Assembly: GCF_024502345.1 (NCBI RefSeq)
Contig: NZ_JALDNN010000001.1
Source: Escherichia coli
GTDB lineage: Bacteria; Pseudomonadota; Gammaproteobacteria; Enterobacterales; Enterobacteriaceae
Strand: one strand, 5' to 3'
Length of the DNA stretch: 64,000 bases
Shown in pieces: positions 4,993 to 49,057 of this stretch. The notes below the pieces were generated by a model, which did no database searches, was not told where the DNA came from, and saw nothing but the letters and a program-made list of their open reading frames with translations. Positions within the stretch are counted from its first letter, which is position 1; each line of letters opens with the position of its first letter. The translations under genes and the position numbers were made by a program.

Positions 4993-5976
4993 TTATTTCA
5001 CCGTACCTAAAATTTCGATTTTCGCCGCTCTGGCTTTGACTTTACGTGACCAGATAGAGGTAAGAATTGGCACCAGAATCGAAGTCACAATGACTGCCGT
5101 CGCTACCAGCGAAGTTGCTGCCGGAGCCATCGGTTTAAACGCAGGCACCATTTCTGCAATCAGCACAGGTGTCGCTACCGCGGCCCCTGCGGAACTGGAA
5201 GCGGCAATTCCGGCAGTGCCATCGCCACCGCCAATCAATTTATCGGCGATAATCAACGGAATACCGGTCACGATAATTACTGCCACACCCAACAGGATCC
5301 CCAGCAAACCTGTCTGGGCAATTACAGTCAAATCAATGGTATTGCCCAGTGCGAAGGCAAAGAATGGAATCAGCGTCTGCACCGCTTTGCTGAAAAATTC
5401 TCGTAATTCAGGGTCAAGGTTCCCCAGGGCAAAGCCCACCAGGAACGGTAATACTGCGCCGACGAAAACATGCGGTTCAAACGAGGCAATCCCGGCAGTG
5501 CCCAGAATAATCATCGTCATGAGCGGCCCGGACTCCAACGACATCAACACAAATGCCCCAGCTTCTTCTTTTGTGCCGTACTGCTGCATGATGGAAGCGT
5601 AAAGTCCGCCGTTGGTCATATCCATCGCCGCCACCAGCGCCAGCGTTGAAAGTCCGGCAAAGAATCCAACTTCAACACCATGTTCCGGAATAATGCGCGA
5701 GGCAATTGCCGCAACCACCCACGCGACGGCAATTTTAGTTACCACCAGCGTACCGGATTTACGCAGTACCGTTCCCGTCGCGCTTAATTTTATTGACGCC
5801 CCCATGCAAAAAAACCACACCGCCAGAATGGGCACCGTACCGGTAATCATCCCGTTGGTGAATGATCCAAAATATTTCCCCGCCCCCGGCGAGAAGGTGT
5901 GGCACAGTGCGCCAAGGAATAGCGGGACGAGCATCATCCCCCCCGGGATTTTCTCAATCGAGTGTTTTATCTGCAT
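4993..5976 (-). CDS. kdgT: 2-keto-3-deoxygluconate permease, 327 aa
   Basis: ORF 4993..5985; recognised KdgT begins [20 protein letters not shown]; polytopic membrane protein. Confidence 0.9.
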
Positions 5977-6151
5977 TTCCATCACCTGTCGGCATATTTT
6001 TAAGGGCTGATGCGTAATTCCTCAATGGAGCATCAGTGTTGATGGAAACGAAGATAGACATTCATTTAATCAATAAAAGTGATCAAAACCACATCAATTG
6101 AAACGCTGTTTTATTTTTATCGGATCATTGTTTTTATTTTGAAATTGATCA

Positions 6152-6190
6152 CAAAAAAACCACCGCCATTGGCGATGGTTCATTTTTTAA
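6152..6190 (-). terminator. Rho-independent terminator downstream of sodA
   Basis: Hairpin accaccgcc-att-ggcgatggt with flanking A-run and T-run, 46 bp past sodA stop. Confidence 0.5.
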
Positions 6191-6235
6191 GCTGATATGC
6201 GGCGTAAACGCCTCATTGCAGCAGACGGCAAATGA

Positions 6236-6856
6236 TTATTTTTTCGCCGCGAAACGTGCCGCTGCTTCGTCCCAGTTCACCACGTTCCAGAACTCTTTGA
6301 TGTAGTCCGGACGGCGGTTCTGGAATTTCAGGTAGTAAGCATGTTCCCACACATCCAGGCCCAGAATCGGGAAGCCGGAAGCGCCAGAAATAGCTTCACC
6401 CATCAGCGGGGAGTCCTGGTTAGCAGTAGAAACCACCGCCAGTTTATCGCCTTTCAGCACCAGCCATGCCCAGCCGGAACCAAAGCGGGAAGCTGCCGCT
6501 TTCTCAAATTCTGCTTTGAAGTTATCTACGGAACCGAAATCACGTTCGATAGCCGCTTTCAGGTCACCCTGCAGGGTGGTGCCTTTTTTCAGACCTTTCC
6601 AGAACAGGCTGTGGTTAGCGTGACCGCCAGCGTTGTTGCGCAGTACGGTTTTCTTGTCTGCTGGCAGCTGGTCCAGTTTGGTGATCAGCTCTTCAACCGG
6701 CAGGTTGGCAAATTCTGGCAGGCTTTCCAACGCCGCGTTGGCGTTGTTGACGTAGGTCTGATGGTGTTTGGTGTGGTGGATTTCCATGGTCTGCTTATCG
6801 AAGTGCGGTTCCAGGGCATCGTAAGCATACGGCAGGGATGGCAGGGTATAGCTCAT
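6236..6856 (-). CDS. sodA: Manganese superoxide dismutase, 206 aa
   Basis: ORF 6236..6862; [38 protein letters not shown] matches SodA. Confidence 0.95.
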
Positions 6857-6913
6857 ATTCATCTCCAGTATTGTCGGGCGGCCGATTGTTAATGCCGCGT
6901 AAGCAGTTGGTTC

Positions 6914-6949
6914 ATTATAGTTAATTAAATGATATTGAAAATGATTATC
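6914..6949 (-). promoter_or_regulatory. sodA promoter -10 (tataat) overlapping an AT-rich Fur-box-like operator
   Basis: Minus-strand reading gataatcattttcaatatcatttaattaactataat, iron-box-like hexamer repeats overlapping the -10. Confidence 0.5.
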
Positions 6950-7140
6950 AATGCCGCACTTTTCGTAAGGGTATGGTTTTGCAGGAAAATGCCCGAGATG
7001 TGAAGCAAATCACCCACTTAATGCCGTGATTGCCAGTAAATCGACAACGGCGGCAACAGGCGAAAGGTTAATCGACAGCACGATTTTTACACTCATCTCG
7101 TCGGAGATGTGACGCGACGAAAAATGATGAGGATAAGAAG

Positions 7141-9930: not shown

Positions 9931-12943
<3,013 letters not shown>

Positions 12944-12947
12944 ACAC

Positions 12948-13190
12948 TGCCGGATGCGGCACAAGTGCCTTATCCGGCCTACAGGTCGGCAACAGTTTTA
13001 GGCCTGATAAGACGCGACATCGCATCAGGCATTGATTGCCGGATGCGGCACAAGTGCCTTATCCGGCCTACAGGTCGGCAATAGTTGTAGGCCTGATAAG
13101 ACGCGACAGCGTCGCATCAGGCATTGATTGCCGGATGCGGCACGAGCGCCTTATCCGGCCTACGGGTCGTGCATCCGACAACACCGAATT
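12948..13190. repeat. REP/BIME cluster, roughly 100-bp unit present in about 2.5 tandem copies
   Basis: Unit ccggatgcggcacaagtgccttatccggcctacaggtcggcaa...gtaggcctgataagacgcgac...gcatcaggcattgatt repeated between rhaA and rhaD. Confidence 0.75.
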
Positions 13191-30427: not shown

Positions 30428-30718
30428 CTAACGGTTAAGTGCTTGCAGCACATGTTGCGGATCATTGGCAATCGCTCGCAGCAAAGCCTTTGCAGGCCCG
30501 GTCGGTGAACGTCGCCCCTGCTCCCAGTTACGCAACGTGTCTACGCTTACAGAAATAAGATCGGCAAATTTAGATTGTGACAACCCTGAAGCGCGGCGTA
30601 TTTCTTTGATTTTCATAGCATCAACTTCAAAAGTCCGCGAAGGCTGTCGCGTTCCTTCAATAATTTCATTCATCTGGGCCATGCTGTGAGTCAACCGCTC
30701 AAAAAGTGCCTTATCCAT
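30428..30718 (-). CDS. XRE-family helix-turn-helix antitoxin (HigA/NadS-like), 96 aa
   Basis: ORF MDKALFERLTHSMAQMNEIIEGTRQPSRTFEVDAMKIKEIRRASGLSQSKFADLISVSVDTLRNWEQGRR...; HTH motif; ATG immediately abuts the stop of the upstream toxin-like ORF. Confidence 0.75.
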   Translation of the reverse strand: MDKALFERLTHSMAQMNEIIEGTRQPSRTFEVDAMKIKEIRRASGLSQSKFADLISVSVDTLRNWEQGRRSPTGPAKALLRAIANDPQHVLQALNR

Positions 30719-31030
30719 TTACCACCTCGTATTTAACAACCGGAGCATTGCTTTTCCCAGGGGAGACAGATCATCTTTAATACCCTTACGATAAATAAGC
30801 AGTAATCTGATCTCATAATGTTTAACCTGATGAAAGTAAATAACCCTGACACCAGCACGTTTCCCCTTTCCTCCTGACACCCATCGAACCTTTCTTAACC
30901 CACCAGTTTCAGGTATTACCTCACCATAGTCAGGATTCAAGGCTAGGAAAAACTGAAAACGACGGAATTCATCGTCGTTCAGCAGTTTTTGAACATCTTC
31001 AGTAAAAATTTCCGTTTCGATGAAGGGTAT
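30719..31030 (-). CDS. RelE/HigB-superfamily toxin-like gene (DUF1044 addiction-module killer type) lacking a canonical start codon; possibly inactive
   Basis: Frame open from stop at 31073-31075 down to 30719: ...IVIPFIETEIFTEDVQKLLNDDEFRRFQFFLALNPDYGEVIPETGGLRKVRWVSGGKGKRAGVRVIYFHQVKHYEIRLLLIYRKGIKDDLSPLGKAMLRLLNTRW. No ATG/GTG upstream of the TTG at 30940; the position where a start is expected from the family's typical N-terminus (M-x-FIET) is ATA (31028-31030). Confidence 0.55.
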   Translation of the reverse strand: MPFIETEIFTEDVQKLLNDDEFRRFQFFLALNPDYGEVIPETGGLRKVRWVSGGKGKRAGVRVIYFHQVKHYEIRLLLIYRKGIKDDLSPLGKAMLRLLNTRW

Positions 31031-31171: not shown

Positions 31172-31246
31172 TTTTCCACATCCGTGAATTTCCCTGTATC
31201 CATCCAGCAGAAACGAGTGTATAAAACTGTACATTCATACAGCAAG

Positions 31247-32167
31247 ATGAGTTCTACTATGGCACTGGAAAAAGGAATTGCAGAGTTAGTCGAAGAGTTT
31301 ATCGCTGCGGGTCGCCCCTCATCGCGTCAACAAAGTATTGCACAGCGCAGGGAGGGCTATATCGCCAGCGCTGTCCTTGCGGGTGAGACAGAAACGCGGG
31401 TAGATATTCAGACTATCGAACTTGAAGGGATGACCTTACGAATAGTGTCACCGCTGAATGCCCCGACATTACTCCCGACGATAATTTATTACTACGGTGG
31501 CTGTTTTGTTAGCGGCGGGTTCGCAACTCACGACAACCAGCTGCGCCAGTTAGCCTATTACGGGCAATGTCGTGTTATTGCCGTCCAGTATCGGCTGGCA
31601 CCGGAACATACTTTCCCCGCCGCCCATGATGATGCGCAACGAGGTGCAGAATTAGTCTTGCAACACGCCGAACGACTTGGCGTTGATAAACAGCGGATAA
31701 CTCTTGCCGGTGACAGTGCGGGCGGACATCTGGCGCTGGTAACTGCTTTGCGATTAAAGCGTGCTGGCGAGTGGCAACCTGCACAACTCATATTAATTTA
31801 TCCCATGCTTGATGCGACTGCGCATTTCGAAAGCTATATCCGCAATGGTCACGATTACATCATCACACGCGATACTCTACTGAGCGGCTTTGAGATGTAC
31901 CTACCAGATATTGATCGCAAGCATCCTGAAGCCAGTCCTCTATGGCGAGATGATTTTAATGGCTTGCCGCCTGTACATATCATTACCGCTGAATACGACC
32001 CACTTTGCGATGAAGGTGAAGCGTTGTATCACCGCATGACCGAGCAAGGAGTGCAATGTACCTGCCAACGCTACCCTGGCGTTATCCACGGATTTTTTCA
32101 GTTAGGTGGTATCAGCGAGGCCGCGCGATCGGCACTACGGGATGTTGCCTGGAGAGCGGGAAGGTAA
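31247..32167 (+). CDS. Alpha/beta-hydrolase, family IV (HSL/Aes-like) esterase, about 307 aa
   Basis: ORF 31184..32167; oxyanion-hole region YYYGGCF, nucleophile elbow GDSAGG, DPLCDEG and C-terminal HGFF catalytic-His motif. Start chosen at first ATG (31247); GTG at 31184 also possible. Confidence 0.75.
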   Translation: MSSTMALEKGIAELVEEFIAAGRPSSRQQSIAQRREGYIASAVLAGETETRVDIQTIELEGMTLRIVSPLNAPTLLPTIIYYYGGCFVSGGFATHDNQLRQLAYYGQCRVIAVQYRLAPEHTFPAAHDDAQRGAELVLQHAERLGVDKQRITLAGDSAGGHLALVTALRLKRAGEWQPAQLILIYPMLDATAHFESYIRNGHDYIITRDTLLSGFEMYLPDIDRKHPEASPLWRDDFNGLPPVHIITAEYDPLCDEGEALYHRMTEQGVQCTCQRYPGVIHGFFQLGGISEAARSALRDVAWRAGR

Positions 32168-38911: not shown

Positions 38912-40153
38912 ATGAAATGGTTTAACACTTTAAGTCACAACCGTTGGCTGGAACAGGAAACCGATCGCATCTTTGATTTTGGTAAAAATTCCGTAGTACC
39001 GACCGGATTTGGCTGGTTAGGCAATAAAGGGCAAATCAAAGAAGAGATGGGCACCCATCTGTGGATCACAGCTCGTATGTTGCACGTTTATTCCGTTGCT
39101 GCGGCGATGGGTCGACCTGGCGCTTACTCGTTGGTTGATCACGGTATTAAAGCCATGAACGGCGCACTGCGCGATAAAAAATATGGCGGCTGGTATGCCT
39201 GTGTGAATGACGAGGGCGTGGTGGATGCCTCCAAACAGGGCTATCAACATTTCTTTGCTCTGCTGGGTGCTGCCAGCGCCGTCACTACCGGTCATCCGGA
39301 AGCGCGCAAGCTGCTCGATTACACCATTGAAATTATCGAGAAATACTTCTGGAGCGAAGAAGAGCAGATGTGCCTGGAGTCCTGGGACGAAGCCTTCAGC
39401 AAAACCGAAGAGTACCGCGGCGGCAATGCCAATATGCACGCAGTGGAAGCTTTCTTAATTGTTTATGACGTAACGCATGACAAAAAATGGCTGGATCGCG
39501 CGATTCGCGTGGCTTCCGTGATTATCCACGACGTCGCAAGAAATAATCATTATCGCGTTAACGAACACTTCGATACCCAGTGGAATCCGCTGCCGGATTA
39601 CAACAAAGATAACCCGGCGCACCGCTTCCGCGCGTTCGGAGGTACACCAGGCCACTGGATCGAATGGGGCCGTTTAATGCTGCACATCCACGCGGCCCTG
39701 GAAGCCCGTTGCGAACAACCGCCAGCATGGTTGCTAGAAGATGCCAAAGGTCTGTTTAACGCCACCGTGCGTGATGCCTGGGCACCCGATGGTGCGGACG
39801 GGATTGTTTATACCGTTGACTGGGAAGGAAAACCGGTGGTCCGCGAACGTGTGCGTTGGCCTATCGTCGAAGCGATAGGTACGGCCTACGCGCTCTACAC
39901 CGTCACCGGCGATCGCCAGTATGAAACCTGGTATCAGACATGGTGGGACTACTGCATTAAGTACCTGATGGACTATGAAAATGGTTCCTGGTGGCAGGAG
40001 CTGGATGCGGACAATAAAGTCACCACGAAAGTCTGGGACGGCAAACAGGATATTTATCACCTGCTGCATTGCCTGGTGATCCCGCGTATCCCGTTAGCGC
40101 CAGGCCTGGCTCCGGCAGTTGCGGCGGGTCTGCTGGATATTAACGCGAAATAA
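38912..40153 (+). CDS. yihS: Sulfoquinovose isomerase (AGE-family epimerase/isomerase), 413 aa
   Basis: [43 protein letters not shown]... Confidence 0.9.
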
Positions 40154-40333
40154 CTGACTAAAAAAAAACGACATATCAGGCTGCACGCCGGGTATGTCGT
40201 TATTCAATAAAGGTACCTCGTATGCAAATCACCAACATGCATTGCAGTGGACAGACCGTTTCACTTGCCGCGGGGGATTATCACGCGACCATTGTGACCG
40301 TCGGTGCAGGTCTGGCTGAATTAACCTTTCAGG

Positions 40334-41554
40334 TGTAGATTCAATTGGTCAACGCAACAGTTATGTGAAAACATGGGGTTGCGGAGGTTTTTTGAATGAG
40401 ACGAACATTTACAGCAGAGGAAAAAGCCTCTGTTTTTGAACTATGGAAGAACGGAACAGGCTTCAGTGAAATAGCGAATATCCTGGGTTCAAAACCCGGA
40501 ACGATCTTCACTATGTTAAGGGATACTGGCGGCATAAAACCCCATGAGCGTAAGCGGGCTGTAGCTCACCTGACACTGTCTGAGCGCGAGGAGATACGAG
40601 CTGGTTTGTCAGCCAAAATGAGCATTCGTGCGATAGCTACTGCGCTGAATCGCAGTCCTTCGACGATCTCACGTGAAGTTCAGCGTAATCGGGGCAGACG
40701 CTATTACAAAGCTGTTGATGCTAATAACCGAGCCAACAGAATGGCGAAAAGGCCAAAACCGTGCTTACTGGATCAAAATTTACCATTGCGAAAGCTTGTT
40801 CTGGAAAAGCTGGAGATGAAATGGTCTCCAGAGCAAATATCAGGATGGTTAAGGCGAACAAAACCACGTCAAAAAACGCTGCGAATATCACCTGAGACAA
40901 TTTATAAAACGCTGTACTTTCGTAGCCGTGAAGCGCTACACCACCTGAATATACAGCATCTGCGACGGTCGCATAGCCTTCGCCATGGCAGGCGTCATAC
41001 CCGCAAAGGCGAAAGAGGTACGATTAACATAGTGAACGGAACACCAATTCACGAACGTTCCCGAAATATCGATAACAGACGCTCTCTGGGGCATTGGGAG
41101 GGCGATTTAGTCTCAGGTACAAAAAACTCTCATATAGCCACACTTGTAGACCGAAAATCACGTTATACGATCATCCTTAGACTCAGGGGCAAAGATTCTG
41201 TCTCAGTAAATCAGGCTCTTACCGACAAATTCCTGAGTTTACCGTCAGAACTCAGAAAATCACTGACATGGGACAGAGGAATGGAACTGGCCAGACATCT
41301 AGAATTTACTGTCAGCACCGGCGTTAAAGTTTACTTCTGCGATCCTCAGAGTCCTTGGCAGCGGGGAACAAATGAGAACACAAATGGGCTAATTCGGCAG
41401 TACTTTCCTAAAAAGACATGTCTTGCCCAATATACTCAACATGAACTAGATCTGGTTGCTGCTCAGCTAAACAACAGACCGAGAAAGACACTGAAGTTCA
41501 AAACACCGAAAGAGATAATTGAAAGGGGTGTTGCATTGACAGATTGAATCTACA
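40334..41554 (+). mobile_element. IS30 insertion sequence, 1221 bp, with 2-bp target-site duplication GG
   Basis: Terminal inverted repeats tgtagattcaattggtcaacgcaacag (left) and gtgttgcattgacagattgaatctaca (right); GG at 40332-40333 and 41555-41556; contains 383-aa transposase ORF. Confidence 0.92.
40396..41547 (+). CDS. insI: IS30 transposase, 383 aa
   Basis: ORF MRRTFTAEEKASVFELWKNGTGFSEIANILGSKPGTIFTMLRDTGGIKPHERKRAV...; DDE motif region HWEGDLV. Confidence 0.9.
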   Translation: MRRTFTAEEKASVFELWKNGTGFSEIANILGSKPGTIFTMLRDTGGIKPHERKRAVAHLTLSEREEIRAGLSAKMSIRAIATALNRSPSTISREVQRNRGRRYYKAVDANNRANRMAKRPKPCLLDQNLPLRKLVLEKLEMKWSPEQISGWLRRTKPRQKTLRISPETIYKTLYFRSREALHHLNIQHLRRSHSLRHGRRHTRKGERGTINIVNGTPIHERSRNIDNRRSLGHWEGDLVSGTKNSHIATLVDRKSRYTIILRLRGKDSVSVNQALTDKFLSLPSELRKSLTWDRGMELARHLEFTVSTGVKVYFCDPQSPWQRGTNENTNGLIRQYFPKKTCLAQYTQHELDLVAAQLNNRPRKTLKFKTPKEIIERGVALTD

Positions 41555-42407
41555 GGGCTGTCATTTAGTTATTCCACATAAACCCGAAGAGATGCCGCTG
41601 GCACATCTGGGCAAAGTCCTTATTCCGTGGCCGAACCGGATCGCCAACGGCTGTTATCGCTATCAGGGGCAGGAATATCAGTTACCCATTAATGAACATG
41701 GTTCAAAAGCCGCTATTCATGGGCTGCTCGCCTGGCGTGACTGGCAAATCAGCGAATTAACCGCCACCAGCGTTACCCTGACAGCTTTTCTGCCACCCAG
41801 TTACGGCTATCCGTTTATGCTGGCTTCGCAGGTTGTTTATTCGCTCAATGCACGCACGGGTCTTTCCGTTGAGATCGCAAGTCAGAATATTGGTACTGTG
41901 ACCGCACCCTATGGTGTGGGTATTCATCCTTATTTAACCTGCAACTTAACATCTGTTGATGAATATCTGTTCCAGCTTCCGGCAAACCAGGTTTATGCCG
42001 TCGATGAGCACGCTAATCCGACAACGCTTCACCACGTTGATGAGCTGGATTTAAATTTCACGCAGGCGAAAAAAATAGCCGCGACAAAAATCGACCACAC
42101 CTTTAAAACCGCTAATGATCTGTGGGAAATAACCATTACCCATCCACAACAGGCGCTTTCGGTAAGCCTTTGTTCCGATCAACCCTGGGTGCAGATTTAT
42201 AGCGGCGAAAAATTACAGCGTCAGGGACTGGCAGTTGAACCTATGAGTTGCCCACCTAACGCCTTTAATTCAGGTCTCGACTTATTATTACTGGAACCAG
42301 GGAAAACGCACCGCCTGTTTTTTAATATTTACGGGCAGCACAATTAATTTTATTAAGAAAAGAACGAGATCATTGTTTAGGGTTGTATTTACACAACAGG
42401 AAATATC

Positions 42408-43283
42408 ATGGACTTTTTTACGTTATTTTCACCGGATGGGGTCATGCTGGAAACAAACGTGGTATGTATCGTTATCGCGTTAATGTTTCTTTATACCTTT
42501 GTGGGGATATGCGCGGGATTTGGCGGTGGTTTAACCACCATGCCGCTCGTCACGTTAATGCTCCCCGTAAAAATGGCAACTCCGCTCTCGGTGATTGTCG
42601 GCACCGCGACCGCCTTGTACGCCACCTGGCTGTCACGTAAAGAAACGGATTGGCGATCGGCAATGGTACTGATTATTTTCTCGTTTCTGGGAATACCCGT
42701 CGGTTTATATGCGCTGTCATATTTACCCGACCATTTTATGAAAGTGGGCTTAGGCGGATTCCTTATCCTGTACTCCTTTTACAGTATGTTTATTCCACGC
42801 CTGCCGATTTATGACCGCAACTGGATCGCCGCACCTATCGGCGCTGTGGCAGGAGCGTTAGGGGCAGCGTTTTCAACCAACGGACCGCCGATGGTTATCT
42901 ACGGTATGCTGCGTAACTTAGGCCCGGCGGCATTTCGTGGCACTCTGAACGCTTTCTTCACCGCAAACAACATCGCGGTGATCGGCGGGCTGGCGACCAG
43001 CGGAATTTTGACTGTTTCTATCTTTAAACTGGTGCTGTTTTGTATTCCCACCATGATCCTCGGTTCACTGGTTGGACAATATGTGCATAAACGCATTTCA
43101 GTCAAAGTGTTCCGTGTGATGGTCTTTTTGTTGCTGATTGCCTCCGGTTCTATGTTGATAAAAGGCGCGCTGGGAATTCCCGCTGCTGCCGCGCTTCTGC
43201 CTCCTTTTACCTTGTTAGTTATACTGCAACTGGCATTTGGTAAAAAAGTGGCGGCAATCCGCCGGGCTGAAGAAAGTAAATAA
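42408..43283 (+). CDS. TauE/SafE-family (DUF81) membrane permease, putative sulfite/sulfonate exporter, 291 aa
   Basis: ORF MDFFTLFSPDGVMLETNVVCIVIALMFLYTFVGICAGFGGGLTTMPLV...; multiple TM segments with the glycine-rich motif (AGFGGG..P) typical of TauE/SafE proteins; SD aggaaa before ATG. Confidence 0.7.
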   Translation: MDFFTLFSPDGVMLETNVVCIVIALMFLYTFVGICAGFGGGLTTMPLVTLMLPVKMATPLSVIVGTATALYATWLSRKETDWRSAMVLIIFSFLGIPVGLYALSYLPDHFMKVGLGGFLILYSFYSMFIPRLPIYDRNWIAAPIGAVAGALGAAFSTNGPPMVIYGMLRNLGPAAFRGTLNAFFTANNIAVIGGLATSGILTVSIFKLVLFCIPTMILGSLVGQYVHKRISVKVFRVMVFLLLIASGSMLIKGALGIPAAAALLPPFTLLVILQLAFGKKVAAIRRAEESK

Positions 43284-43391
43284 TCACTTATGCGGGTTTT
43301 AATTTATACCAGCACCACATTCTTTAATTAATGAAACCTGTAACAACAGGATGGCATGAAATATTAGCTTTATACTCTATGGAGATTATTT

Positions 43392-45424
43392 ATGGATACG
43401 CCACGCCCACAATTACCAGATTTTCAGTTTCATCAGAATAACGACAGTTTTACCCTACATTTTCAACAGCGTCTTATTTTAACCCATAGCAAAGATAATC
43501 CTTGTTTATGGATTGGTTCAGGTATTGCGGATATCGATATGTTCCGCGGCAATTTCAGCATTAAAGATAAACTACAGGAGAAAATTGCGCTTACCGACGC
43601 CATCGTCAGCCAGTCGCCGGATGGTTGGTTAATCCATTTCAGCCGTGGTTCTGACATTAGCGCCACGCTGAATATCTCTGCCGACGATCAGGGCCGTTTA
43701 TTGCTGGAACTACAAAACGACAACCTTAACCACAACCGTATCTGGCTGCGCCTTGCCGCTCAACCAGAGGACCATATCTACGGCTGCGGCGAACAGTTTT
43801 CCTACTTCGATCTGCGTGGCAAACCGTTCCCGCTATGGACCAGTGAACAAGGCGTTGGTCGCAATAAACAAACCTATGTCACCTGGCAGGCCGACTGCAA
43901 AGAAAATGCGGGCGGCGACTATTACTGGACTTTCTTCCCACAGCCTACGTTTGTCAGCACGCAGAAGTATTACTGCCATGTTGATAACAGTTGCTATATG
44001 AACTTCGACTTTAGTGCCCCGGAATACCATGAACTGGCGCTGTGGGAAGACAAAGCAACGCTGCGTTTTGAATGTGCTGACACATACATCTCCCTGCTGG
44101 AAAAATTAACCGCCCTGCTGGGACGCCAGCCAGAACTGCCCGACTGGATTTATGACGGAGTAACGCTCGGCATTCAGGGCGGGACGGAAGTGTGCCAGAA
44201 GAAACTGGACACCATGCGTAACGCGGGCGTGAAGGTCAACGGCATCTGGGCGCAGGACTGGTCCGGTATTCGTATGACCTCTTTTGGCAAACGCGTGATG
44301 TGGAACTGGAAGTGGAACAGCGAAAACTACCCGCAACTGGATTCGCGTATCAAGCAGTGGAACAAAGAGGGCGTGCAGTTCCTTGCCTATATCAACCCGT
44401 ATGTTGCCAGTGATAAAGATCTCTGCGAAGAGGCGGCAAAGCGCGGTTATCTGGCAAAAGATGTCGCCGGTGGCGACTATCTGGTGGAGTTTGGCGAGTT
44501 CTACGGCGGCGTTGTCGATCTCACCAATCCGGAAGCCTACGCCTGGTTCAAGGAAGTTATCAAAAAGAACATGATTGAACTCGGCTGCGGCGGCTGGATG
44601 GCTGACTTCGGCGAGTATCTGCCCACCGACACGTACCTGCATAACGGCATCAGCGCGGAAATTATGCATAACGCCTGGCCCGCGCTGTGGGCGAAATGTA
44701 ACTACGAAGCCTTGAAGAAACGGGCAAGCTCGGCGAGATCCTCTTCTTTATGCGCGCCGGTTCTACCGGTAGCCAGAAATACTCCACCATGATGTGGGCG
44801 GGTGACCAGAACGTGGACTGGAGTCTGGACGATGGCCTGGCGTCGGTTGTCCCGGCGGCGCTATCTCTGGCAATGACCGGACATGGCCTGCATCACAGCG
44901 ACATTGGCGGTTATACCACCCTGTTTGAGATGAAGCGCAGCAAAGAGCTGCTGCGCTGGTGCGATTTCAGCGCCTTCACGCCGATGATGCGCACCCACGA
45001 AGGTAACCGTCCTGGCGACAACTGGCAGTTTGACGGCGACGCGGAAACCATCGCCCATTTCGCCCGTATGACCACCGTCTTCACCACCCTGAAACCTTAC
45101 CTGAAAGAGGCCGTCGCGCTGAATGCGAAGTCCGGCCTGCCGGTTATGCGCCCGCTGTTCCTGCATTACGAAGACGACGCGCAGACCTATTCCCTGAAAT
45201 ATCAGTACCTGTTAGGTCGCGACATTCTGATTGCTCCGGTACACGAAGAAGGTCGCAGCGACTGGACGCTCTATCTGCCAGAGGATAACTGGGTCCACGC
45301 CTGGACCGGAGAAACCTTCCACGGTGGAGAAATAACTGTTGAAGCGCCCATCGGCAAGCCGCCGGTCTTTTATCGCGCCGACAGCGAATGGGCTGCACTG
45401 TTCGCCTCGTTAAAAAACATCTAA
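43392..45424 (+). pseudogene. yihQ: GH31 sulfoquinovosidase yihQ carrying a 1-bp frameshift near 44714
   Basis: ORF 43392..44792 (466 aa) and out-of-frame ORF 44750..45424 (224 aa) together cover one ~678-aa GH31 protein; reading cttgaagaaacg as cttgGaagaaacg restores a single frame (...NYEALEETGKLGEILFFMRAGSTGSQ...). Confidence 0.75.
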
Positions 45425-45469: not shown

Positions 45470-46855
45470 ATGAGTCACATCACAACGGAAGATCCGGCAA
45501 CTTTGCGCCTGCCCTTTAAAGAGAAACTCTCTTACGGTATCGGCGATCTGGCCTCTAACATCCTGCTGGATATTGGTACGCTTTATCTTTTGAAGTTTTA
45601 TACCGACGTTCTGGGGCTACCTGGCACCTATGGCGGCATTATCTTTTTGATCTCGAAATTCTTTACCGCCTTTACCGATATGGGAACCGGCATCATGTTG
45701 GATTCCCGGCGTAAGATTGGCCCGAAAGGTAAGTTCCGCCCTTTCATTTTGTACGCGTCATTCCCGGTCACCTTATTGGCAATCGCTAACTTTATCGGCA
45801 CACCGTTCGATGTCACTGGTAAAACGGTGATGGCCACTATTCTATTTATGCTCTACGGGCTGTTTTTCAGCATGATGAACTGCTCCTACGGCGCAATGGT
45901 TCCCGCCATTACCAAAAACCCCAACGAACGCGCATCGCTGGCGGCATGGCGTCAGGGTGGTGCTACATTGGGCCTGCTGCTGTGTACGGTGGGATTCGTG
46001 CCGGTGATGAACCTTATCGAAGGTAATCCGCAACTGAGCTACGTTTTCGCCGCCACGCTATTTTCACTGTTCGGCCTGCTGTTTATGTGGATCTGCTACT
46101 CGGGCGTGAAAGAGCGTTATGTCGAAACCCAACCTGCTAATCAGGCGCAAAAGCCAGGCTTGCTGCAATCTTTCCGCGCAATTGCCGGTAACCGCCCACT
46201 GTTCATTCTGTGTATTGCCAACCTCTGCACCTTAGGGGCGTTTAACGTCAAGCTCGCCATTCAGGTCTATTACACCCAGTACGTGCTTAACGATCCCATC
46301 CTGTTGTCGTATATGGGATTTTTTAGCATGGGCTGTATTTTCATCGGCGTGTTCCTGATGCCTGGCGCAGTTAGACGTTTTGGTAAGAAGAAGGTCTATA
46401 TCGGCGGCCTGCTGATTTGGGTGCTTGGCGATCTGCTCAACTATTTCTTCGGCGGCGGCTCGGTCAGTTTTGTGGCGTTCTCCTGCCTGGCATTCTTTGG
46501 CTCGGCGTTTGTTAACAGCCTGAACTGGGCGCTGGTTTCCGACACCGTCGAGTACGGCGAGTGGCGCACCGGTGTCCGTTCTGAAGGGACGGTCTACACC
46601 GGCTTCACCTTCTTTCGCAAAGTGTCTCAGGCGCTGGCTGGTTTCTTCCCCGGCTGGATGCTGACGCAAATCGGCTATGTGCCGAACGTGGCGCAGGCTG
46701 ACCACACCATTGAAGGGTTGCGCCAGCTGATCTTCATCTACCCAAGCGCACTGGCGGTAGTCACCATTGTGGCGATGGGTTGCTTCTACAGTCTGAACGA
46801 GAAGATGTACGTCCGCATTGTTGAAGAAATAGAAGCCCGTAAACGCACGGCGTAA
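45470..46855 (+). CDS. yihP: GPH-family (sugar:cation symporter) transporter, 461 aa
   Basis: ORF 45437..46855; start MSHITTEDPATLRLPFKEKLSYGIGDLASN with SD aatggaga. Confidence 0.85.
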   Translation: MSHITTEDPATLRLPFKEKLSYGIGDLASNILLDIGTLYLLKFYTDVLGLPGTYGGIIFLISKFFTAFTDMGTGIMLDSRRKIGPKGKFRPFILYASFPVTLLAIANFIGTPFDVTGKTVMATILFMLYGLFFSMMNCSYGAMVPAITKNPNERASLAAWRQGGATLGLLLCTVGFVPVMNLIEGNPQLSYVFAATLFSLFGLLFMWICYSGVKERYVETQPANQAQKPGLLQSFRAIAGNRPLFILCIANLCTLGAFNVKLAIQVYYTQYVLNDPILLSYMGFFSMGCIFIGVFLMPGAVRRFGKKKVYIGGLLIWVLGDLLNYFFGGGSVSFVAFSCLAFFGSAFVNSLNWALVSDTVEYGEWRTGVRSEGTVYTGFTFFRKVSQALAGFFPGWMLTQIGYVPNVAQADHTIEGLRQLIFIYPSALAVVTIVAMGCFYSLNEKMYVRIVEEIEARKRTA

Positions 46856-46894
46856 TAATAAACGACGCCCTGCGGGGCGTTATAAGGAGTGATT

Positions 46895-48298
46895 ATGTCT
46901 GACCATAATCCACTGACATTAAAACTGAATCTGCGGGAAAAAATCGCCTATGGTATGGGCGACGTTGGTTCGAATTTAATGCTTAGCATCGGTACTCTGT
47001 ATCTCCTCAAATTTTATACCGATGAATTAGGGATGCCAGCTTACTATGGCGGGATTATCTTTCTGGTGGCGAAGTTTTTTACCGCGTTTACCGATATGCT
47101 CACCGGATTTTTACTCGACTCGCGGAAAAATATTGGGCCTAAAGGCAAATTTCGTCCCTTTATTTTATATGCAGCGGTTCCGGCGGCGTTAATTGCAACG
47201 CTCCAGTTTATCGCCACCACTTTTAGTTTGCCGGTTAAAACGACGATTGCCACGGCGCTGTTTATGATGTTTGGGCTTTCATACAGTCTGATGAACTGCT
47301 CGTATGGCGCGATGATCCCGGCAATTACCAAAAACCCGAATGAGCGCGCGCAGCTCGCTGCTTACCGCCAGGGTGGTGCAACCATAGGGCTATTGATTTG
47401 TACCGTGGCGTTTATTCCGTTGCAGTCGCTTTTTTCTGACTCAACCGTCGGTTATGCCTGTGCGGCACTTATGTTCTCCATTGGCGGCTTTATTTTTATG
47501 ATGCTGTGCTACAGAGGCGTCAAAGAGCATTATGTGGACACAGCGCCAACCGGACATAAAGCCAGTATTCTCAAATCATTTTGCGCGATATTTCGGAATC
47601 CGCCATTGCTGGTTTTATGCATTGCTAACTTGTGTACCCTGGCGGCATTTAATATCAAACTGGCGATTCAGGTCTATTACACCCAGTATGTGCTGCATGA
47701 TATTAATTTATTGTCGTGGATGGGATTCTTCAGTATGGGATGCATCCTCATCGGCGTATTACTGGTGCCATTAACTGTAAAATGTTTTGGTAAAAAACAG
47801 GTTTATTTAGCTGGCATGGTGCTATGGGCGGTTGGTGATATCCTGAATTATTTCTGGGGAAGTAACTCTTTCACTTTCGTCATGTTCTCTTGTGTCGCCT
47901 TTTTTGGCACGGCCTTTGTAAACAGCCTGAACTGGGCGCTGGTACCAGATACCGTAGATTACGGTGAATGGAAAACCGGTATTCGTGCCGAAGGTTCTGT
48001 TTATACCGGTTATACCTTCTTTCGTAAAATTTCTGCCGCACTTGCTGGCTTCTTGCCAGGCATTATGCTGACGCAAATCGGTTATGTTCCCAACATCGCG
48101 CAAAGTGATGCGACATTACAGGGTTTGCGTCAGCTCATTTTTATCTGGCCTTGTGCACTGGCAATTATTGCTGCATTGACGATGGGATTCTTTTACACAC
48201 TCAATGAAAAACGGTTTGCGTTGATTATTGAGGAAATCAACCAACGCAAAAATAAAGAAATTGAGACAGAAGAAAAAACGGCTTCCGTAACGTTATAA
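46895..48298 (+). CDS. yihO: GPH-family sulfoquinovose transporter, 467 aa (paralog of yihP)
   Basis: ORF 46889..48298; start MSDHNPLTLKLNLREKIAYGMGDVGSNLML with SD aaggag 5 nt upstream. Confidence 0.85.
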   Translation: MSDHNPLTLKLNLREKIAYGMGDVGSNLMLSIGTLYLLKFYTDELGMPAYYGGIIFLVAKFFTAFTDMLTGFLLDSRKNIGPKGKFRPFILYAAVPAALIATLQFIATTFSLPVKTTIATALFMMFGLSYSLMNCSYGAMIPAITKNPNERAQLAAYRQGGATIGLLICTVAFIPLQSLFSDSTVGYACAALMFSIGGFIFMMLCYRGVKEHYVDTAPTGHKASILKSFCAIFRNPPLLVLCIANLCTLAAFNIKLAIQVYYTQYVLHDINLLSWMGFFSMGCILIGVLLVPLTVKCFGKKQVYLAGMVLWAVGDILNYFWGSNSFTFVMFSCVAFFGTAFVNSLNWALVPDTVDYGEWKTGIRAEGSVYTGYTFFRKISAALAGFLPGIMLTQIGYVPNIAQSDATLQGLRQLIFIWPCALAIIAALTMGFFYTLNEKRFALIIEEINQRKNKEIETEEKTASVTL

Positions 48299-48364
48299 AT
48301 GTCAATAGCCGCTATTTCCATCCTGGTGGGTGGCGGCCTCCCTACGTTTAAAAATGGACTTATT

Positions 48365-49057
48365 ATGAAAAATATTAATGCAATAATTTTATTATCTTCT
48401 CTGACCTCTGCCTCAGTATTCGCTGGCGCATACGTCGAAAACAGGGAGGCATATAATCTCGCCTCCGATCAGGGCGAGGTTATGCTACGTGTGGGTTATA
48501 ACTTCGATATGGGCGCGGGTATTATGTTAACCAATACCTACACCTTTCAGCGAGAAGATGAACTAAAACATGGATATAACGAAATCGAAGGTTGGTATCC
48601 GTTATTTAAACCAACCGATAAATTAACCATCCAGCCCGGTGGCTTAATTAATGATAAGAGTATCGGTTCGGGTGGTGCAGTGTATCTGGACGTCAACTAT
48701 AAATTTGTACCATGGTTTAATCTGACAGTACGAAATCGCTATAACCATAATAACTATAGTTCAACAGATTTGAGCGGGGAACTGGATAATAATGACACCT
48801 ATGAAATTGGTACCTACTGGAATTTTAAAATCACCGATAAGTTCTCCTATACATTTGAGCCACATTATTTTATACGCGTAAATGACTTTAATAGCAGCAA
48901 TGGAAAAGATCATCACTGGGAAATCACTAACACCTTCCGTTATCGCATTAATGAACACTGGCTGCCTTATTTCGAATTACGCTGGTTAGATCGTAATGTC
49001 GAACCGTACCACCGCGAGCAAAACCAGATTCGTATCGGGACGAAGTATTTCTTCTGA
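48365..49057 (+). CDS. ompL: Outer-membrane porin OmpL, 230 aa
   Basis: Internal Met MKNINAIILLSSLTSASVFAGAY... of ORF 48299..49057; ends ...IRIGTKYFF. Confidence 0.85.
   Translation: MKNINAIILLSSLTSASVFAGAYVENREAYNLASDQGEVMLRVGYNFDMGAGIMLTNTYTFQREDELKHGYNEIEGWYPLFKPTDKLTIQPGGLINDKSIGSGGAVYLDVNYKFVPWFNLTVRNRYNHNNYSSTDLSGELDNNDTYEIGTYWNFKITDKFSYTFEPHYFIRVNDFNSSNGKDHHWEITNTFRYRINEHWLPYFELRWLDRNVEPYHREQNQIRIGTKYFF

Follow-up and report, generated by a model that had tools for sequence, protein, structure and literature searches.

Does the Escherichia coli genome sampled here still have a working gene for the mutarotase YihR and, if that gene has been broken by an insertion sequence, is the break genuine, is it recent, and does its influence reach the genes behind it? 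The stretch of DNA analysed, called the window, is 64 kb long and holds the sulfoquinovose (sulfo-EMP) cluster, with csqR(yihW)-yihV on the minus strand and yihU-T-S-R-(tauE)-Q-P-O-ompL on the plus strand. The answer given here, to which a probability of roughly 0.93 is attached, is that codon 38 of yihR was hit by a single insertion of a canonical IS30, in an ancestor of a rare E. coli lineage of the human gut. A literature search yielded no paper naming yihR together with IS30. The yihR::IS30 allele is undescribed, but it is a polymorphism between strains and nothing new in kind, as the element and the process are already known.

The element and its target site

Reading of 39900-42600 together with a script check places a complete IS30, of exactly 1221 bp, at 40334-41554, and this is the sole IS30 copy within the window. 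The element and the short duplication that frames it comprise:

40332..40333, no strand: target duplication, left GG copy, read from the sequence (empty site GGG)
40334..41554, plus strand: IS30, complete, 1221 bp, with its transposase oriented the same way as yihR; 0 mismatches against the L020, L025 and L026 copies
40334..40359, plus strand: IS30 left inverted repeat (IRL), 26 nt, 88%, from a repeat search
40396..41547, plus strand: IS30 transposase gene, intact, a 383-aa ORF without stops; NF033563, PF13936 and PF00665
41529..41554, plus strand: IS30 right inverted repeat (IRR), from the repeat search, holding an outward-facing TTGACA at 41536-41541
41555..41556, no strand: target duplication, right GG copy, read from the sequence

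The element starts with TGTAGATTCAATTGGTCAACGCAACA and ends with TGTTGCATTGACAGATTGAATCTACA, and its 26-nt inverted repeats are complementary at 23 positions. In a profile search the transposase scores 276 bits against the model 'IS30 family transposase' (NF033563, cutoff 80), and 46,003 blocks of the public assembly collection contain the identical protein, which carries the Pfam domains PF13936 HTH_38 and PF00665 rve. At the DNA level there is no mismatch in 1221 positions against three public copies and there are 2 in 1221 against IS30A of K-12 MG1655. Length and inverted repeats of about 26 bp, an HTH/DDE transposase ORF, a 2-bp duplication and near-identity to the reference are all found, and the element is an IS30 by every defining test and essentially identical to the reference. 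As its ORF and inverted repeats are intact, the copy in yihR is presumed to be active. The sequence-only reading from which the analysis started had described the element, its repeats, its transposase and the GG duplication correctly.

That 2 bp were duplicated follows from the empty site, which reads GGG where GG now stands on either side of the element. Duplications of 2 bp are also found at 7 of the 10 other IS30 copies sampled. IS30 transposes by a copy-out-paste-in route that leaves 2-bp duplications, and its reported preference is for near-palindromic hot spots or for its own ends (PMC9333248). Entry into codon 38 of yihR would have been by this normal route with a 2-bp staggered cut in the target. 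In a small sample, 10 public IS30 copies and IS30A of K-12, the flanks are symmetric about the duplicated pair, which has on either side two bases and then GC, followed by an A-rich arm on the left and a T-rich arm on the right. The yihR flanks, GGCTGAATTAACCTTTCAGG on one side and GGGCTGTCATTTAGTTATTC on the other, are without this pattern and share with it a short CAG..CTG symmetry and the T-rich right arm; judged by that small sample of sites, the yihR site is not a hot-spot target and looks to be an off-consensus one. A near-palindromic hot spot or an adjacent IS30 inverted repeat is a preference, not a requirement, for IS30 insertion.

What is left of yihR and of the genes behind it

The insertion leaves yihR in two pieces behind an intact yihS:

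38912..40153, plus strand: yihS (sulfoquinovose isomerase), intact upstream neighbour, a 413-aa ORF syntenic with the annotated yihS in NZ_AP042570.1
40222..40338, plus strand: yihR 5' fragment, 37 native codons followed by Val and TAG from the left end of IS30, making a 38-aa junction ORF
41557..42347, plus strand: yihR 3' fragment, codons 38-300 and the stop, inside ORF 41544-42347; PF01263 Aldose_epim hit in the 251-aa protein called in public contigs

With the yihR ATG at 40222, IS30 entered after the first base of codon 38, so the earlier wording 'after codon 37' holds in the numbering of a 300-aa protein (the K-12 annotation begins 8 codons earlier). The 5' fragment reads ...AELTFQV and meets its TAG stop at 40336-40338, within IRL. 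On the far side an open frame runs from a TTG at 41544, inside IRR, into the 3' part, and has no recognisable ribosome-binding site; a fusion of transposase and YihR is ruled out, the frames being different and the transposase stopping at 41545-41547. Codon 38 is split by 1221 bp and the present genome has no intact, expressible yihR. The allele is null and YihR is cut to a 38-aa peptide, since the remaining 263 codons are parted from the promoter and the ribosome-binding site. Gene knockout by an inserted IS is textbook material.

Taking out IS30 and one GG restores, as had been foreseen, a 300-aa ORF (...LTFQGCHLVIPH...). It matches the aldose-1-epimerase profile NF011719 end to end (618 bits, cutoff 251, residues 1-299 of 300), is identical to K-12 YihR at 289 of 300 residues, and recurs unchanged, as a protein, in 23,544 blocks. 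The gene is a well-characterised member of the sulfo-EMP cluster, in whose order it falls between yihS and yihQ, as it does in NZ_AP042570.1 and in K-12. Over the 600 bp of the reconstructed empty site there is 100% identity to E. coli OkiPb01695 (NZ_AP042570.1), where yihS and yihR are annotated, which bears out a simple, clean insertion. When the wider comparison that had been proposed was made, an empty site (at least 80% coverage of the 600 bp) was present in 3980 of the 5426 complete E. coli genomes.

The weight of this loss for metabolism depends on the origin of the substrate. YihS acts on beta-SQ while the product of YihQ is alpha-SQ, and without an enzyme the anomers interconvert slowly (half-life ~299 min; PMC8006165). 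The mismatch in anomers together with the slow spontaneous reaction implies that the mutarotase matters mainly for glycoside-derived substrate, and the genes that follow are relevant here:

42408..43283, plus strand: gene for a TauE/SafE-family membrane protein, 291 aa; PF01925, annotated 'sulfite exporter TauE/SafE family protein' in NZ_AP042570.1
43392..45424, plus strand: yihQ (sulfoquinovosidase) pseudogene, by alignment to OkiPb01695 (L001); ORFs 43392-44792 and 44750-45424
45470..49057, plus strand: yihP, yihO and ompL, apparently intact from their ORFs, from 461-, 467- and 252-aa calls in matching contigs and from the NZ_AP042570.1 annotation

A 'permease' gene had been noted after yihR. 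The gene is there, but its product is the TauE/SafE-family membrane protein, which is lacking in K-12, where a 198-bp gap lies between yihR and yihQ instead. Export of sulfite or of DHPS is a candidate role for it. It is present in 1295 of the 5426 complete E. coli genomes and is not listed in the description of the yih cassette as having two forms, long and short (PMC12608037).

The lesion in yihQ, which the first reading had missed along with the identity of the 'permease' and the IS5, IS1 and nonsense lesions of other lineages described below, is a 1-bp deletion (CCC to CC) near 44709-44711 in the alignment to OkiPb01695, and it leaves ORFs of 466 and 224 aa. An additional, in-frame, 3-bp deletion (GCT) lies near 44946. 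Against NF007746, a profile for YihQ-type glycosidases, the two pieces align to positions 3-446 and 455-680. The frameshift is in a CCC run and in this assembly alone could be a sequencing error, but 49 blocks of public assemblies contain the identical 466-aa fragment, so that it is not a one-off error. Loss of yihR and the separate yihQ frameshift together would leave the sulfoquinovose-glycoside branch inactive in this lineage, with the prediction that the clone is unable to use sulfoquinovosyl glycerol or sulfolipid-derived sulfoquinovose by the canonical route. For annotation purposes both yihR and yihQ are pseudogenes here.

Whether the insertion also silences what lies behind it is a matter of where transcription starts. 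In K-12, yihR, yihP, yihO and ompL are all induced by sulfoquinovose with log2FC of at least 5 (PMC12608037), and CsqR binds strongly at a single target, the yihU/yihV spacer (PMC8249747). A simple scan of the plus strand from 39800 to 43500, of a kind that weak or activator-dependent promoters escape, found no sigma-70-like promoter. The simplest reading of the single CsqR site, the induction of the downstream genes and the outcome of the scan is that induced transcription comes from upstream through yihR. IS30 would then sit between the only known CsqR-controlled promoter region and tauE-yihQ-yihP-yihO-ompL, and sulfoquinovose-induced transcription of these genes would probably be lowered too, the likely causes being untranslated RNA past the transposase stop and termination within IS30. 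With the element present tauE would come after some 860 nt of RNA that is probably untranslated, a situation favourable to termination. It tells against polarity that a simple scan of IS30 gave no intrinsic terminator within the element, although both terminators in IS30 and polarity caused by it were reportedly described by Dalrymple and Arber (Gene, 1986). An effect of this kind on tauE-yihQPO-ompL is plausible, though the frameshift makes it partly moot for yihQ itself.

A structure upstream has a bearing on the same matter:

40167..40201, plus strand: stem-loop in the yihS-yihR spacer, RNA fold dG -19.9 kcal/mol, z -3.3; terminator-like call on the minus strand

It has an A9 run before it and a weak U-tail after it, and may be a partial terminator or attenuator of the yihUTS transcript. 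The literature refers to the upstream genes as the 'yihUTS operon', and this term and the stem-loop together suggest that yihR and the downstream genes could have a promoter of their own. Should such a promoter lie between IS30 and tauE, the insertion would leave the genes downstream untouched.

The element could even have the opposite effect, with read-out into the yihR remnant (yihR') and beyond, starting either at the transposase promoter or at a hybrid one pairing the IRR TTGACA (41536-41541) with TGTCAT at 17-bp spacing, and so CsqR-independent expression of yihR', tauE, yihQ', yihP, yihO and ompL. The same IRR hexamer, given a suitable -10, forms the strong Pjunc promoter of IS30 IR-IR junctions (PMC9333248), where by our own reading of the sequence TTGACA-N17-TAGATT arises at the IRR-NN-IRL joint; the candidate in yihR matches the consensus at 10 of 12 positions, and the transposase ORF ends 7 nt before the end of IS30 with no terminator found after it. 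However, position 2 of the candidate -10 is not the critical A, and the promoter scan did not pick up this -10, so the hybrid promoter is rated weak; moreover tauE would still be preceded by the ~860 nt of probably untranslated yihR' RNA, and neither yihR nor yihQ could give a full-length product. Activation in place of polarity is accordingly considered improbable, and reduced transcription of the downstream genes is preferred.

Probably one insertion, inherited by a rare lineage

The left junction is absent from all 5426 complete RefSeq E. coli genomes, and IS30 is a multi-copy element, found in up to 23 places per genome. Both facts would suit an assembly artefact, with IS30 reads misplaced inside an intact yihR, and the sequence-only reading had named assembly error as what would overturn it. 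Public assemblies speak against this. The 38-aa junction ORF is on record in 85 blocks, and the exact left junction is in all 8 of the independent contigs fetched, each of which runs 30-532 nt into IS30 and then ends; ending inside the element is usual for short-read contigs at repeats. The exact right junction is in at least 10 contigs (L002-L005, L010, L011, L044, L045, L047 and L048). From the left L012 extends 532 nt into IS30 and from the right L044 extends 761 nt, so that jointly they span the entire element, and L044 is 100% identical to the window over 5554 nt. Both junctions are present in the isolate assembly GCA_050029375.1 and also in the metagenome ERZ27263756; GCA_050022275.1 and GCA_050023715.1 are further isolates of the lineage. 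The 2-bp duplication with collinear flanks is, besides, what true transposition leaves. An artefact is effectively refuted, its residual probability being negligible.

NCBI isolates, ENA metagenomes and Logan assemblies are the sources of the contigs with a junction, several human-gut metagenomes among them, and against the window the flanks of these contigs show 0-5 SNPs per 6-9 kb. From this low flank diversity a single ancestral event is deduced. Two metagenome contigs, L012 and L015, are more distant, with 21 and 57 SNPs against the window. Their divergence, the known hot-spot targets of IS30 (PMC9333248) and an IS5 situated in another lineage only ~10 bp from the IS30 site could be taken to mean that the element has entered a hot spot here repeatedly and independently. 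But all the extra SNPs of L012 and L015 lie more than 850 nt from the junction, as fits recombination or chimeric metagenome assembly, and orientation and junction are identical across all contigs. The site fits poorly the near-palindromic pattern at other IS30 copies. IS30 is absent here from every complete genome, and any break in the 600-bp empty-site segment is present in at most 20 of 4000 genomes, a scarcity that argues against an IS30 hot spot. Recurrent insertion is very improbable, and the pattern is read as one insertion in an ancestor, passed down within a rare E. coli lineage of the human gut that has diversified slightly since. The insertion had been called clean and probably recent; clean it is, but it is fixed in a much-sampled lineage in which 1-5 SNPs have already arisen per 6-9 kb of flank, and it is a clone marker and not a fresh event.

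Among the 5426 complete genomes no close relative of the lineage was found, the best match to the flanking core being 99.3% over 15 kb on one side and 97.9% over 25 kb on the other. A Shigella origin was considered, as the E. coli set lacks the lineage and IS1 is present in a related contig, but it is unsupported: the 64-kb window shows one IS, and the site is adjoined by a short-read contig of 99 kb. The junction itself, for instance as the 38-aa ORF ending ...LTFQV, is a specific marker with which this rare human-gut clone can be tracked in isolates and metagenomes.

Within and around the lineage there are further changes to the cluster. Two members bearing the IS30, L006 (3918-5304) and L010 (3945-5331), have yihP split into 185 and 282 aa, and L008 (5085-5297) has a gap of ~220 bp in yihO; these suggest that decay continued after the insertion. 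In the metagenome scaffolds L007 (1-49) and L008 (1-49), which are 99.7-99.96% identical to the window and have the same yihQ frameshift, yihR is cut at 42103 beside a piece of an IS66-family tnpC, either by further rearrangement or because the scaffolds are chimeric. The frameshift is also shared by L009 (GCA_014329185.1), on a 1%-divergent background; that contig ends at an IS1 before yihR. As to which came first, the IS30 or the yihQ frameshift, among contigs gathered by look-up of the 251-aa YihR fragment the sole one with a truncated yihR and an intact yihQ is L046, in which the truncation is IS5-borne and the haplotype is another.

Elsewhere in the window, between fdhE and fabY, two adjacent minus-strand ORFs of 96 aa (HTH antitoxin-like) and 73 aa at 30428-30940 resemble a toxin-antitoxin pair and are beside a 327-aa esterase-like ORF at 31184-32167.

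Decay of the cassette elsewhere and comparison with known systems

Other lineages have lesions of their own at this locus. L046 (positions 1-134; ERZ27246681 k141_8395) has an IS5 at yihR TTAG, the equivalent of window positions 41564-41567 and so the one ~10 bp from the IS30 site; it is a different E. coli haplotype, 98.9% identical and with yihQ intact, and its yihR knockout is independent. In L009 (1-109) an IS1 end abuts the yihR-tauE spacer at about window position 42360, and in L035 (6129-6826) and L038 (6681-7058) yihL/typA come directly after an IS1, with tauE through yihM deleted (the extent is also given as tauE-yihN). OkiPb01695, whose NZ_AP042570.1 is the closest complete genome at the locus, has yihR intact, but its yihV, yihU and yihQ are annotated with internal stops (5001-5897, 6065-6961 and 11136-13172), an independent decay of the cassette; the stop in yihQ is a TGG to TAG change at 13051.

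These lesions invite the thought that entry steps for sulfoquinovose glycosides are repeatedly lost under selection in gut-adapted E. coli, the yihR::IS30 and yihQ-frameshift alleles being one case of it, or, in a narrower variant, that IS30 drives CsqR-independent expression of the downstream transporters. The IS5 in yihR, the IS1 insertions and deletions, the OkiPb01695 nonsense mutations and the published short cassette can be cited for selected loss; they are anecdotal, and the low break rate in complete genomes does not favour it. Taken together these proposals are unlikely, if less so than the alternatives weighed above. Were selected loss true, sulfoglycolysis would be costly or counter-selected in some host niches. 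For the preferred single inherited insertion the importance beyond strain biology is little, though it adds a small data point for the yih cassette as an unstable, often degraded module.

Three known systems offer comparison. IS30A of K-12 (NC_000913.3 270541-271761; insI1) has the same 1221 bp, inverted repeats, single 383-aa transposase ORF and 2-bp duplication, and is identical at 1219 of 1221 positions; location alone sets the yihR copy apart, its target being unlike the near-palindromic hot spots at IS30A and most sampled copies. Published variants in the structure of the yih cassette, a long ompL-yihOPQRSTUVW and a short yihTUVW form, have led to its being called an evolutionarily labile module (PMC12608037). 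As in the short form, the early steps (yihQ, yihR) are lost here too, but the loss is by IS insertion and frameshift within a long cassette, which has the extra TauE/SafE gene. With the IS-mediated pseudogenisation of host-restricted E. coli and Shigella there is likeness in the insertional knockout, in point lesions in the same pathway and in the parallel IS1 and IS5 hits elsewhere. The difference is that the window shows one IS and short-read contigs of 99 kb flank the site, from which it appears that this genome is not heavily IS-expanded.
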